Shown here one piece after another: positions 910 through 26,927 of a stretch of 30,837 nt of DNA. The translations under genes were made by a program, and so were the position numbers. The notes under the pieces are model-generated. The model saw only the letters and a list, made by a program, of their open reading frames with translations, was not told the DNA's origin and ran no database searches. The stretch lies in IMG/VR virus record IMGVR_UViG_3300011335_000724, positions 1 to 30,837 of that record. One strand, written 5' to 3'. The DNA is from a virus. Taxonomy: Duplodnaviria; Caudoviricetes. The stretch's first letter is position 1. Every line of letters begins with the position of its first letter.

Positions 910-1050
910 GTGGAATTTTTATCCCATCCAGCCTTTTGGATTGTTGTAGCAGCAGCTTCCGAGCTAATTGGCATGTCCCGCCTTAAATCAAATGGCATTA
1001 TTCAATTGGTGTTCCAAATCCTTAATCTTCTTAAAGCAAAAAAGGGTTAA
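910..1050 (+). CDS. 46-aa holin-like membrane protein MEFLSHPAFWIVVAAASELIGMSRLKSNGIIQLVFQILNLLKAKKG
   Basis: GTG at 910, TAA at 1048-1050; two hydrophobic segments and a basic C-terminus; below the ORF-track length cutoff. Confidence 0.65.
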   Translation: MEFLSHPAFWIVVAAASELIGMSRLKSNGIIQLVFQILNLLKAKKG

Positions 1051-1286
1051 TCAGCTTTGGCAAACCAGCCTGGGAGCGTGAACTCGAATTCGCCATTCGC
1101 AAATGGTGGTTTGAGAAGACGCTGCCAGCCAAGCTGGATGCTGCCGAGGCTGAATGGCACAAGGCGCAACCGCTACCGCCGCCACCCATCGTGATAGAAC
1201 ACTCGATCAACGATGAATTGCAAACTGGCGCCAGCCGGTTGTTAGGTGGTGAAATCTCAATCCATGCCCCTTACGACCGAAACTGA
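1044..1286 (+). CDS. -1 frameshift extension of the 910 gene (GLISFGKPAWERELEFAIRKWWFEKTLPAKLDAAEAEWHKAQP...APYDRN); fusion product 125 aa
   Basis: Frame open 1035-1286 with an in-frame stop at 1032-1034 and no ATG; slippery A AAA AAG at 1038-1044; fills the gap exactly up to the next ATG at 1288. Confidence 0.55.
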   Translation, partial: GLISFGKPAWERELEFAIRKWWFEKTLPAKLDAAEAEWHKAQPLPPPPIVIEHSINDELQTGASRLLGGEISIHAPYDRN

Positions 1287-1746: not shown

Positions 1747-2445
1747 ATGAGCAGCTTTCTTTTTGCCGTTAAGGCCACTCATAAGCCACCAATGCCTCAC
1801 CAACAGGCCGCTTGGAATTTTGCCTGGGATCAACTTGACGAAAAGCAAAAAGCTGAATTTTTGGTGTTATTTCGGTCTGACCCACCACAAAAAGCAGCAT
1901 TAATTGGCAAGGTACTATTAAATGTTAAGTATGAATACCAGCTGGACAATGCCAGTGGCAGCGGATATAGAGAATGTTTCAGTAGTTCATGCGCCATGGT
2001 TGCAAATTTTTGGGGCAAGGTTGAAAATGACGACGCATATAACAGAATTAGAGAACGGTACGGCGACACAACAAGCAGTAGCGCTCAAATTTCAGCATTA
2101 CGTTCGCTTGGCCTTGACGCACGGTTAGTAACCAACGCCAGTGCTGGTGTACTAGAAGCAGAATTAAAAGCTGGGCGCCCTGTACCTGTTGGGTGGCTTC
2201 ACAAAGGAAATAACTGGAATCCCTCGGGGGGCGGCCATTGGTCTGTGGCTATTGGATTTGACGACACGCATTGGATCCTCCACGACCCCAATGGGGAAGC
2301 AGATTTAATAAATGGCGGTTACGCTAATCACAACAATGGAAAAGCAATTCGCTATTCCAAAGTAAACTTCAACCGGCGTTGGTGTGTCAGTGGCACGTCA
2401 GACGGTTGGGCGATCCTCTGCAAACCGCTTGACCCCCATGGTTGA
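1747..2445 (+). CDS. Peptidase C39-like cysteine peptidase, probable endolysin
   Basis: Q..N...GYRECFSSSCAM (catalytic Cys), GRPVPVGWLH, GGGHWSVAIGFD (His), HDPNG (Asp); located in the lysis region. Confidence 0.75.
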   Translation: MSSFLFAVKATHKPPMPHQQAAWNFAWDQLDEKQKAEFLVLFRSDPPQKAALIGKVLLNVKYEYQLDNASGSGYRECFSSSCAMVANFWGKVENDDAYNRIRERYGDTTSSSAQISALRSLGLDARLVTNASAGVLEAELKAGRPVPVGWLHKGNNWNPSGGGHWSVAIGFDDTHWILHDPNGEADLINGGYANHNNGKAIRYSKVNFNRRWCVSGTSDGWAILCKPLDPHG

Positions 2446-8207: not shown

Positions 8208-8354
8208 TTAGTCGGGAAGGGGTGTTGGTAGGGGAGTGGTGCGGGGTGTTGCTATGTAGGTAGAGCTTGGGTTGGGCAGGTTGGCTAGGTGTTGTAAGGC
8301 AGCAAGCCAGAGCAGTGCTGTTGCTGTGATCAGGGCCAGGAGGTAGCGGTTCAT
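8208..8354 (-). CDS. 48-aa single-pass membrane/secreted peptide MNRYLLALITATALLWLAALQHLANLPNPSS...PLPD
   Basis: ATG overlaps the ardC stop (ATGA); signal-anchor-like N-terminus; terminator follows. Confidence 0.55.
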   Translation of the reverse strand: MNRYLLALITATALLWLAALQHLANLPNPSSTYIATPRTTPLPTPLPD

Positions 8355-9340
8355 AACAACACCTCGGCAGCTGGTGTGGCTGTGGTGTTGGTGTTGGTGA
8401 TCAAGTCTGCTGCTGCTCTGGCCTTGCCAAGGACCTTAAACAGGGAACCGGGCTCAGCTTGCAGGATGGCTGCCCACTGCTTGAGATAGGCCGCATGATT
8501 AATAAGGCAACAGCCAACCTGTAGCCGGTAACAGATCAAGACAGAGGCCAGCTCTGCCACTAGTTCTTCGATGGCGTAAGGCTTGGACCCTTGGCTGCCG
8601 TGTTGTGGCCTGTTGAGCCTTGCCTTGTGGCCAGTGCTATGGGCCTGTTCATGGGCCCAGGTAGCAACAAACGATTCTCGATCGTTAAAGCTCTCAAGTG
8701 GTGGCATCCTGATCGCGTCCAGCTGTGGCGAATAGCAAGCAACAGCACCGCCATAGGTGGTGGGAACTAGCCAAGCCTCGAGCACTTGCTCTGCTGCTTC
8801 CAACCTCTCGGCTTGTGGCTTGGTGGTGTTGTGGCCTAAAGCGCTGCTGATCGCAGCCTGTAAGGCCAGCTCTGCTGCTTCGTCAACACCTTTGAAGTCT
8901 GCTGCATTGAAGACGGCAACAGCTTTGTAAGAGGTCCAGGCCCTAGTCACGTCAACTTCGTTACCTGTTGCGGGGTCCTGTTCTGTTTCGGTGTAGCTGT
9001 TGGCTTGCGGTCTAAGGATGCGGCAACAGGTTGACCCTTTCTTGGGCCACCAGTTAAGAGCCTTGGCTTGGGCTGCACCTAACCAAAGGGGCAGGGTATG
9101 GCCTTGAATCATGGACCCAAGCTCAAGTAGCAAAGGGTTGCTGCCTGAGTACTCGGCACCTGTGATCAAGTTGCGGTGATTGCCAGAGGTGGCGGTCCAC
9201 TCCTTACGCCAAGGCGGGAGATCTGCTGATTCCATCAACGCCACTAGATCAGCGGCAAGCTTCTCCTCTGGTGATGGCCCGTCGTATTTGGCCTTGGCCT
9301 TGGTGCTGGTTGTTTTGGTCTTGGTGGTGGTGGTAGGCAT
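8351..9340 (-). CDS. ardC: ArdC-family ssDNA-binding antirestriction protein (DUF1738 N-domain plus zincin-like C-domain)
   Basis: PPWRKEW, NLITGAEYSGSNPLLL, W....QA......KKGS, VFNA, ACYSP..D.I.MP....F, HEQAHSTGH..RLNR, YA.EELVAE; likely start ATG 9340 (MPTTTTK). Confidence 0.9.
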   Translation of the reverse strand: MPTTTTKTKTTSTKAKAKYDGPSPEEKLAADLVALMESADLPPWRKEWTATSGNHRNLITGAEYSGSNPLLLELGSMIQGHTLPLWLGAAQAKALNWWPKKGSTCCRILRPQANSYTETEQDPATGNEVDVTRAWTSYKAVAVFNAADFKGVDEAAELALQAAISSALGHNTTKPQAERLEAAEQVLEAWLVPTTYGGAVACYSPQLDAIRMPPLESFNDRESFVATWAHEQAHSTGHKARLNRPQHGSQGSKPYAIEELVAELASVLICYRLQVGCCLINHAAYLKQWAAILQAEPGSLFKVLGKARAAADLITNTNTTATPAAEVLL

Positions 9341-9374
9341 GGGTTCAAGTGGTGGGGTGGGGTGGGGTGGGGCG

Positions 9375-9566
9375 TTACTGCACCGAAGAATCAAACCATT
9401 CGCAATCAGCAGGGGGGGCCTCTGCTTCAATTGTGAAGATGGGGGCTTCTGGCCAATCAGCAATCACGTGATTAATCCAAGCGATAGCTTGCGCCTTGGT
9501 TCTCACAATGTGAGCTAGATCACGCTGGCCGCAATCGTTGGCAACGATGTAGAGAGGGGTGATCAC
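9375..9566 (-). CDS. Hypothetical early protein, 63 aa
   Basis: GTG start overlapping the upstream TGA; co-oriented with ardC. Confidence 0.6.
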   Translation of the reverse strand: MITPLYIVANDCGQRDLAHIVRTKAQAIAWINHVIADWPEAPIFTIEAEAPPADCEWFDSSVQ

Positions 9567-25313: not shown

Positions 25314-25789
25314 CCCCACCTCTTAGGCCCACAGTTGTAACTGATATTGCTTGGATAGCAGGCCGAATGAGAGCGGCTGATGTTGCTGAGGTAAAAGCCA
25401 ATAGCGGGCTTGAACCACGGGTTGGTTTGCTGCATAGCTACATGAAAGGCAAACCATGCATCACAATGGTGTCAAATAGAGGGGAACCATTAGCAATGGG
25501 CGGGGTCGTGCCAGACGAATTCAATAGCCGGGTAGGCCAAATATGGTTGCTGGGTACTGATGCGTTGGTGGAAAATACGACTAACCGTATGCGGTTTCTA
25601 AGAGGTTGTAGGTCTTGGGTAAATGCTATGCACCGTGAATACGACGTGCTGTGGAATTACATGGACGCTCGTAATGTTGTGCACCGTCGCTGGGTTGAAT
25701 GGATGGGGTTTACCTTTATTGCAAAACGGCCAGACTGGGGAGTAGAAGGTCGTTTATTTTTGGAGTTTTGCAAGGTGAACCATGTGTGA
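25310..25789 (+). CDS. gp13: Internal virion protein A (T7 gp13-like, GNAT-like fold)
   Basis: MR..D..EV.A, G.IWLLGT, LWNY.D.RN..H..W..W.GF.F; ATG 25310 overlaps the gp12 stop. Confidence 0.85.
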   Translation: MTPPLRPTVVTDIAWIAGRMRAADVAEVKANSGLEPRVGLLHSYMKGKPCITMVSNRGEPLAMGGVVPDEFNSRVGQIWLLGTDALVENTTNRMRFLRGCRSWVNAMHREYDVLWNYMDARNVVHRRWVEWMGFTFIAKRPDWGVEGRLFLEFCKVNHV

Positions 25790-26927
25790 TCCAGTCAGCG
25801 TTGGTATTACAAGCACCGTCGTTGGGGGGGGGCTTAACATTGCCGGCCAGGCCAGCTCGTACCAGCAGGCAAAAAGCAATGTCGCTTTTGCTAATGCCCA
25901 AGCTGACATGGATTACTTCCAGACGCAGTTAGATGTTGATGCAGCTAACCGCCAAGCGCAACGGCGGTATTTTCAGGCACAGCAAGAAGAAGCTTATGCC
26001 AACGCACAAGCAGATCGGCAGTATTTCCAAGCACAGCAAGACACTGCTTACGCTAATGCCAGAGCAGATCAAGATTACTTCCAGGCGCAACAGAACACGG
26101 GGTATGTTAACAGCCAAATTAAACAACAGTATTTTCAAACTCAGCAGAATACAAAGTTTGCTAACGCCCAAGCCGAACAACAATACTTTCAGGAAAAAGA
26201 AGAGACAGAGTACGCTAATTTTGCTGCTCAACAAGGTTATCAATACCAGCAAATGCAGGCCGCAACTGCACAAAGCTACGAAGATTTACGGTTTAATCAG
26301 CAAGAAGCACTAATACAACAGACAAGGTTGATTGCTGATAGCGCTTACGCTAACGAAGTGGGGGCATTGAATCTAAGATTGATGCAAGAGCAAGAAGTTG
26401 CGGCACAACAAAGGCAGCAAGCGAACATACAAGCGATGGAAGCTAGCGGTTCCGTAAGAGCTGCTGGCCGAGTTGGGAATTCTATTGAAAGCTTGATTGC
26501 TAATTACGAACGCCAGCAAGCGCAATTTGATTTCGTGACCAACCGCAACTTGGCGTTTGCAACAGCTCAAATACAAGAAGAGAAGCGAGGAGCTGCTGCT
26601 ACTAGAGGTTCCAGGATTGCTAGCCAGCAAGCTTATATCAGGCAGCCTATCCTTGATCCGATGAAACCAATAACAGCGTTAAATCCAATGAAGCCAATAC
26701 TAGCAATTGAGCCGTTACCGCCGATACTAGCGTTAGATCCACTCAAGCCCATCCAGGGCATGGCGCCAATTAAACCTTTGCGAGCGATGACTCCCATGGC
26801 CCCAAGCCCAATATCAGCTCCAATAAAAGGACAAAAACAAGCGGAACCAAGCGCTACACCGTACATATTGGCAGGTGCTGGTGAATTGGTTTCAACTGCT
26901 GCGTCTGTTTATAAGCAGTCTCGATAA
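25782..26927 (+). CDS. gp14: Internal virion / ejection protein B (T7 gp14-like) with 18-aa and 9-aa repeat expansions
   Basis: MCDPVS start, hydrophobic Gly-rich N-terminus, A.G...A.GR.GNS...L core; synteny. Confidence 0.85.
   Translation: MCDPVSVGITSTVVGGGLNIAGQASSYQQAKSNVAFANAQADMDYFQTQLDVDAANRQAQRRYFQAQQEEAYANAQADRQYFQAQQDTAYANARADQDYFQAQQNTGYVNSQIKQQYFQTQQNTKFANAQAEQQYFQEKEETEYANFAAQQGYQYQQMQAATAQSYEDLRFNQQEALIQQTRLIADSAYANEVGALNLRLMQEQEVAAQQRQQANIQAMEASGSVRAAGRVGNSIESLIANYERQQAQFDFVTNRNLAFATAQIQEEKRGAAATRGSRIASQQAYIRQPILDPMKPITALNPMKPILAIEPLPPILALDPLKPIQGMAPIKPLRAMTPMAPSPISAPIKGQKQAEPSATPYILAGAGELVSTAASVYKQSR

Follow-up and report, generated by a model that had tools for sequence, protein, structure and literature searches.

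Does a small hydrophobic gene in the lysis cassette of a cyanobacterial virus yield a second, longer protein through a programmed −1 ribosomal frameshift, and, if so, what would the two products do? The question is raised by a stretch of viral DNA of 30,837 nucleotides (IMG/VR record IMGVR_UViG_3300011335_000724, the assembly in its entirety; hereafter, the window), the open reading frames (ORFs) of which we take to be those of a T7-like cyanophage, with a single-subunit RNA polymerase, primase-helicase, portal, capsid, and tail tube named from the translations. The sequencing runs containing this stretch are riverine and freshwater metagenomes, and the cultured relatives of the gene with a named host all infect Synechococcus. 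The gene (ORF1, 910–1050, + strand) has 46 codons, as originally described; it starts at GTG and specifies a hydrophobic helix, a strongly amphipathic helix, and a basic C-terminus. At its end is found the slippery heptamer A AAA AAG (1038–1044) in the X XXY YYZ phase, one codon upstream of the 0-frame stop (1048–1050). In the −1 frame, a TAA at 1032–1034 is followed by an open stretch that reaches TGA at 1284–1286 with no ATG inside, again as first reported; the shift must therefore occur between 1035 and 1047. A −1 shift at the heptamer would append an extension of 80 codons (1044–1286), predicted to form a long helix, a proline linker, and a short C-terminal motif, and the long product would thus be 125 aa. 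The next gene begins with ATG at 1288, after the TGA of the extension.

A single heptamer is uninformative in itself, because the window contains eight matches compared with 12.4 expected, a number not above chance; conservation is what counts. We examined 438 loci together with the window and dropped seven, namely six false ones without ORF1 (L020 and L274–L278) and one cut before ORF1 (L167), leaving 432 with ORF1; the same contigs recurred across searches, and the distinct junction regions were 239 in number. An in-phase heptamer was kept in 230 of these 239 junctions, where it is A AAA AAG in 227, A AAA AAC in two, and G GGA AAG in one (the phage S-EIVl), and nine junctions are without it. 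When the extension was searched for with a profile, heptamer and extension were found together in 229 junctions and were both missing in eight; of the remaining two, L137 combines an intact extension with G AAA AAG, and the other is cut by the contig end. Many loci had come from queries with the extension, and a recount limited to the 142 loci found with ORF1-only queries gave 132 with both heptamer and extension, eight with neither, one cut by the contig end, and one with G AAA AAG and the extension. Six of the eight loci having neither belong to one group, and five of these six end with AAG AAA, which encodes the same two lysines in a non-slippery order.

Codon statistics were taken from 129 clusters at 90% identity. 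Where the heptamer begins in a four-fold codon, its first base, a wobble position, is A in 118 of 119 cases compared with 464 of 2476 (19%) elsewhere in ORF1, a difference to which no p-value is attached since the relatives are not independent; the residue specified by that codon varies among G, A, P, V, T, and S. In flanking long ORFs, which serve as a control, A AAA AAG accounts for only 6 of 161 Lys-Lys pairs. Junctions with the heptamer extend to extensions of as little as ~21% identity, and the frame relation of ORF1 and the extension is −1 at every locus where both were found. Among the 230 junctions, the 0-frame stop comes one codon after the heptamer in 217, directly after it in 12, and three codons after it in one, and is TGA (154), TAG (40), or TAA (36). 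In many relatives (e.g., L021:2126–2135), Gly-Lys-Lys variants contain two overlapping heptamers, G GGA AAA and then A AAA AAG. The tree of ORF1 is mostly unresolved, with 10 of 42 branches supported, and we claim no order of events. Seven cultured phages carry the heptamer, namely S-CBS1, S-CBS3, S-EIVl, KBS-S-2A, 7B11-B, WH11-B, and S-B28. The lysis cassette had been taken for that of a podovirus, but the site is not confined to podoviruses: S-CBS1 and S-CBS3 are siphoviruses (excerpt of PMC6157547). KBS-S-2A is a siphovirus as well.

Both ORF1 and the extension are under purifying selection in 56 closer relatives, with pN/pS of 0.22 and 0.20, respectively; the same DNA read in other frames gives 1.1 and 2.0 with many stops. 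The extension frame is free of stops in 56/56 of these relatives, while the other two frames are interrupted in 41 and 54, and the most variable codon position switches from frame 0 to frame −1 at the heptamer. The claim that the downstream frame has no start of its own holds in 203 of the 230 junctions, in which ATG, GTG, and TTG are all missing between the upstream −1 stop and the tenth codon after the ORF1 stop. At the codon overlapping the ORF1 stop, CTG (150), CTA (49), TTA (14, including the window), GTA (12), TTG (4), and ATA (1) were found. Gene callers start the extension at scattered places and produce pieces of 44–86 aa; indeed, it is truncated in the records of S-CBS3, S-EIVl, and S-CBS1 and unannotated in those of KBS-S-2A, 7B11-B, WH11-B, and S-B28, so that the annotation needs correction in all seven cultured heptamer records. 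By hydropathy, the extension has no membrane segment, and several lineages have a shorter version of its helix or have lost part of it. The extension of the window has no match in PHROG; among 46 extension homologues, 7 have a match there, to the C-terminal half of phrog_3316.

Proteins of 124–131 aa in which ORF1 and the extension are joined in frame are also on record: P0019 is found on 12 JGI contigs and P0026 on 23 Logan/ENA contigs, and their two parts meet just as a −1 shift would join them. Comparing the split locus L065 with P0019, 44 of 44 and 77 of 78 residues match in the two parts. Further fusions (P0059, P0061, P0064, and P0069) come from one contig each and could be errors. A degenerate pattern of the fusion junction was unmatched in viral contigs, and no fusion was present among 80 loci fetched with P0019; the fusion therefore rests on protein records. 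A structure model of P0019 (pLDDT 83, pTM 0.38) has two short helices, which form the ORF1 part, a 33-residue helix, and a small C-terminal motif.

A fold search with the P0019 model gave weak matches to cyanophage proteins, which were then confirmed by sequence searches. In the T4-like phages ACG-2014f, S-CAM7, S-CRM01, S-H34, and S-PM2, the extension constitutes the C-terminal half of a protein of 121–132 aa, which is equipped with its own hydrophobic N-terminus and involves no frameshift; the extension profile scores 21–35 bits with the proteins of S-H34, ACG-2014f, S-CAM7, and S-CRM01 and 12 bits with that of S-PM2 (p159), a member of phrog_3316 (T4-like gene cluster 852) with no assigned function. 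The gene directly follows a tail-lysozyme gene in two phages and a YkuD gene in S-CRM01; in S-H34 it directly follows a gene without a Pfam match, itself located after an annotated endolysin. Another arrangement is seen in S-CBS2, S-CRES1, and S-CRES3, where a distant homologue of ORF1 has no heptamer at its end and is followed by a separate extension gene. This gene starts in S-CBS2 at a GTG overlapping the ORF1 stop, in the same −1 phase, and in S-CRES1 and S-CRES3 at its own ATG behind a terminator-like hairpin; the extension of S-CRES3 scores 8.6 bits with the extension profile and is 40% identical to that of S-CRES1. The hairpins between the ORF1-like and extension-like genes of S-CRES1 and S-CRES3 (L444:2277–2291 and L446:1646–1661) are accompanied by a T run. 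A conserved start codon of the downstream frame had been named as an observation that would speak against a frameshift; it is absent from the lineages with the heptamer, but these three distant phages do have a start of their own. The separate genes in S-CBS2 and the S-CRES phages indicate that the two modules belong together. Furthermore, P60, S-SRP01, and B23 have relatives of ORF1 alone, and S-CBP2 carries an extension-like gene next to which no ORF1 gene is annotated. From the eight loci with neither heptamer nor extension and from ORF1 alone in S-SRP01 and B23, it follows that the long form is dispensable in some phages; the fusions, which lose the ORF1 stop, suggest that the short form can be dispensable too.

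How, then, would the long form be made? An error in sequencing or assembly, or decay of a fused gene into a pseudogene, might be imagined from the homopolymer at the break and from the fused forms, but this explanation is refuted. Contigs from four other studies show the same split and span the site with no indel, and the split recurs in the records of seven cultured phages and at 230 distinct junctions. TGA, TAG, and TAA each serve as the stop at this one position, and the two parts are both under purifying selection. Slippage of the RNA polymerase in the six-A run, adding an A, would result in nearly the same protein, and contigs assembled from RNA libraries drop rare variants. The run is, however, only six long, its terminal G and codon phase are conserved, the G GGA AAG of S-EIVl contains only three A, and the RNA-library contigs of relatives (two runs of one study, where DNA carry-over is possible) bridge the site with no insertion or other indel; transcriptional slippage is thus extremely improbable. 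Only slightly more probable is that there is no frameshift and that the downstream frame is a separate gene, restarted through translational coupling at the codon overlapping the ORF1 stop. In favour of such a restart, the overlapping codon reads CTG at 150 and TTG at 4 of the 230 junctions, the codon after it is ATC, ATT, or ATA in 89 of 124, and the own starts in S-CBS2 and the S-CRES phages keep re-initiation alive as a minor rival. The overlapping codon is nonetheless TTA in the window and CTA, TTA, GTA, or ATA in 76 of the 230, and a restart leaves unexplained the invariant wobble A, the order AAA AAG, and the replacement of the heptamer by A AAA AAC or G GGA AAG; fusions in frame are also on record, and the phages with separate genes lack the heptamer at the end of ORF1. 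We consider the conserved heptamer to be very probably the site of a programmed −1 frameshift by tandem slippage of two Lys-tRNAs, in which a minority of ribosomes would slip back one base at A AAA AAG and the 46-aa form would be in excess over the 125-aa form. Of the original prediction, therefore, the frameshift with products of 46 and 125 aa is strongly supported by the comparison of relatives, while its reading as a holin/antiholin pair is only inferred.

A stimulator, either a 3′ structure or an upstream Shine-Dalgarno sequence, is usual for −1 frameshifting but not obligatory. A weak hairpin at 1054–1069 had been put forward for this role and can indeed be drawn, but the region 1045–1110 folds no better than shuffles (z −0.45), and its five pairs hold in 66% of cells among the 56 relatives, a level reached by 75 of 500 shuffles; the hairpin is not conserved, and we do not retain it as a stimulator. 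A long imperfect hairpin at 1070–1128, which starts 25 nt past the heptamer, is stable in the window genome (−31.4 kcal/mol, z −4.5) and is paired in 85% of cells in the 56 relatives compared with 26–53% in slid controls; covariation in these relatives is not above that in shuffles, and any role of this hairpin is only putative. In 28 marine-type relatives, no consensus structure after the site and no counterpart of the 1070–1128 hairpin were found. Folding of each locus compared with synonymous shuffles gave a mean z of −0.81 just past the site and −0.73 in the next segment, and Shine-Dalgarno-like words upstream were found in only 4 of 124. Given that the relatives share neither a family-wide 3′ structure 5–9 nt downstream nor an upstream Shine-Dalgarno element, the rate of the shift may be low, and it may be aided by the close stop codon. 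In E. coli, according to excerpts of PMC4066793, A_AA.A_AA.G is among the three most efficient heptamers when stimulators are present, and 39 tested motifs shift above background without a stimulator.

The setting of ORF1 in a lysis cassette, as originally proposed, is supported: in 90 of the 129 clusters, the gene that comes next belongs to one connected group of endolysins, and an endolysin N-terminal domain is found inside the locus in 110 of the 129. The endolysin of the window (1747–2445) matches phrog_10051 (endolysin; E 3e-71), Peptidase_C39_2 (E 4e-10), and the N-domain profile, thus combining the conserved helical N-terminal domain with a C39-like peptidase, and seven sampled endolysin members carry lysozyme, glucosaminidase, C39, or M15 domains. 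The N-domain itself (1747–1914, + strand), which has an HQ motif, is kept while the catalytic domains are swapped and is also seen in T4-like cyanophages. Upstream of ORF1 lies its cassette partner, an 82-aa ORF (656–904, + strand) with an N-terminal hydrophobic segment and a predicted coiled-coil-like tail; it is more hydrophobic than ORF1 (best 19-residue Kyte–Doolittle mean, KD19, of 2.3) and belongs to phrog_26178, to which no function is assigned. An ORF ends at its place in 104 of the 129 clusters, the sampled ones being visibly homologous, and homologues are present in S-CBS1, S-CBS3, and KBS-S-2A; the 82-aa ORF has a lipobox pattern, the Cys of which is missing in the sampled homologues. 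Between the extension and the endolysin, the window has a Met/Gln/Gly-rich 61-aa ORF (1288–1473, + strand), which has no PHROG or Pfam match and occurs in only 3 of the 129 clusters (the window, L030, and L032), followed by two short ORFs on the opposite strand. The latter are a very basic one of 56 aa (1475–1645, − strand; phrog_16028) and a short Gly/Lys-rich one (~1645–1698, − strand), and DNA similar to 1475–1698 directly follows ORF1 in the group lacking the heptamer (L024, L310, and L329). In T7-like relatives, furthermore, ORF1 lies between the tail fibre and the small terminase, the very place of the holin gene (gp17.5) in T7. The extension and the endolysin N-domain do not go together consistently: the extension is missing from P60 and S-SRP01, which do have the N-domain, and S-B28-like phages have a short extension with the N-domain not detected. 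A complex prediction for the two scored 0.02 compared with a mark of 0.32 and gives no verdict.

ORF1 is moderately hydrophobic, with a best 19-residue hydropathy of 1.4 in the window and a mean of 1.65 in 52 homologues. It matches phrog_22542 (E 7e-23), a family without an assigned function, and had no holin match in Pfam, PHROG, or NCBIfam, the Pfam scan having covered 108 further relatives and neighbours as well; the sole holin match (E 0.43) concerned another part of P0181. Searches of Pfam, PHROG, NCBIfam, and PDB sequences and of PDB and the ESM Atlas with Foldseek named no function. Because no library names ORF1 a holin, we class it by its presumed way of working, as a short/long pair of the holin type, and not as a member of a holin family. 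A lysis-related membrane pair is likely. We somewhat favour, in particular, a pair consisting of a membrane protein of 46 aa made in abundance and a less frequent form of 125 aa sharing its anchor, which would act together at the host membrane in lysis. Both forms would insert in the membrane by the shared anchor and co-assemble, the short one serving as the holin-like subunit and the long one as its accessory or regulator. The tail of the long form would be in the cytoplasm, since the hydrophobic helix has basic residues on its C-terminal side. The T4-like proteins, as judged by eye, have theirs ahead of the hydrophobic segment, which would place the same domain outside the membrane. The membrane side of the tail is what decides between a holin-type pair and the spanin-like function considered below.

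In that alternative, which we regard as unlikely, the long form is an inner-membrane factor resembling a spanin or positioning the endolysin; its tail would be periplasmic and act on the cell wall or the outer membrane, and the 82-aa protein would be its partner or the true holin. The P0019 model does contain an anchor and a 33-residue helix, and the higher hydrophobicity of the 82-aa ORF would suit a holin. The T4-like homologues, moreover, have the basic N-terminus followed by a hydrophobic segment (KD19 1.3–2.0) and follow lysozyme, L,D-transpeptidase-family, or tail-lysozyme genes. By eye, S-PM2 p159 has a lipobox-like LSSC, and the ORF1 relatives P0176 and P0178 continue into lipoprotein-like signals. 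When features of a type II spanin anchor were checked, the long helix was predicted, but the topology by eye differs between the family of the window and the T4-like homologues; the lysines clustered just ahead of the extension argue for a tail in the cytoplasm. The outer-membrane partner with a lipobox Cys that a two-component spanin has was not found either, a Cys being present in only 1 of 53 extension homologues and lacking in the sampled homologues of the 82-aa ORF. No spanin family was matched, and the extension helix is not kept intact in several lineages. A role outside lysis can also be conceived, with a genuine frameshift whose pair serves the assembly of the virion or tail fibre like lambda gpG/gpGT and with the endolysin as a mere neighbour. 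The cassette does come after tail-fibre genes in cultured phages, −1 short/long pairs are best known from tail chaperones (excerpts of PMC5009743), and the two genes are not beside a lysozyme in S-CBS2 and the S-CRES phages. The N-terminus of the pair is hydrophobic, however, the gene is not placed before a tape-measure gene and is present in T7-like short-tailed phages, and, within the stretches fetched, the T4-like homologues adjoin hydrolase genes and lie apart from tail genes; we consider an assembly role quite unlikely. In P0176 and P0178, a distant ORF1-like segment runs on into another hydrophobic stretch, at the end of which is a lipoprotein-like cysteine (by eye), which suggests fusions of a holin-like part and a lipoprotein in other phages.

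In its products, the locus resembles lambda gpG/gpGT, where a −1 shift towards the 3′ end of the upstream ORF gives a short protein and a rarer C-terminally extended one (excerpts of PMC5009743). It differs in that a small hydrophobic protein of a lysis cassette takes the place of a soluble chaperone before the tape-measure gene, with no likeness in sequence or fold found and with occurrence in T7-like short-tailed phages. Identity with the tail assembly chaperone G/GT was considered and rejected; neither the position between the major tail and tape-measure genes nor a soluble G domain was found. The heptamer A_AAA_AAG is the same as in E. coli dnaX and IS3/IS911-type sites, where it is highly efficient (excerpts of PMC4066793); unlike those sites, the present one has no conserved 3′ stem-loop at 5–9 nt or Shine-Dalgarno-like element, is followed by a stop 0–1 codon downstream, and functions, if it does, in a cyanobacterial host. 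The heptamers A AAA AAC and G GGA AAC, which belong to the same class, have been reported in phiCbK-like phages (excerpts of PMC3556154).

A lysis cassette in which a single small membrane protein has two isoforms is also known from lambda, where S105/S107 are a dual-start holin/antiholin pair differing by two N-terminal residues. The isoforms predicted here would differ instead by a C-terminal extension of 80 aa gained through a frameshift, and no holin family was matched. Frameshifts in lysis genes are on record for the MS2 lysis gene and for a Lactococcus phage lysin encoded in two overlapping genes, and lysins are among the genes with known frameshifts (excerpts of PMC10885494); those cases involve the lysis peptide of an RNA phage or an endolysin enzyme, whereas the present one would involve a pair of membrane proteins in a dsDNA cyanophage. 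Almost all known conserved frameshifts of phages lie in tail-chaperone, capsid, or tail genes according to excerpts of PMC5009743, the first 300,000 of 449,034 characters of which contain neither “holin” nor “cyanophage”. Full-text searches of the freely accessible literature listed no paper on a frameshift in a membrane or lysis gene of a cyanophage. The recoding proposed here is of a known kind, in a gene class where no report was found.

The site lies in the lysis cassette of abundant Synechococcus-type phages, the membrane-lysis genes of which are unannotated in the records fetched, and phrog_22542 and phrog_3316 are hereby tied to lysis. Tentatively, we entertain the possibility of a two-module lysis device with no relation to named holins or spanins, which podo-, sipho-, and myoviruses infecting picocyanobacteria would have in common. 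Its ratio of anchor to tail might, just as tentatively, be set by interchangeable means: mostly a −1 frameshift, a stop/start overlap in S-CBS2, a terminator separating the genes in S-CRES1 and S-CRES3, fusion in a few phages, or a private anchor in T4-like phages. If this were true, the locus would be the first case in dsDNA phages of a conserved frameshift that tunes a pair of membrane lysis proteins, and the membrane step still missing from the picture of cyanophage lysis would have a name. In S-LBS1 (L439:829–1489), the same endolysin N-domain is preceded by three unrelated small genes, which appear to be a different solution for the membrane step. Elsewhere in the window, a 370-aa ORF of the early region (8351–9463, − strand) is presumably an ArdC-type antirestriction or ssDNA-binding protein, and a probable internal virion protein of 381 aa (25782–26927, + strand) contains several imperfect Tyr-Phe-Gln-rich repeats.
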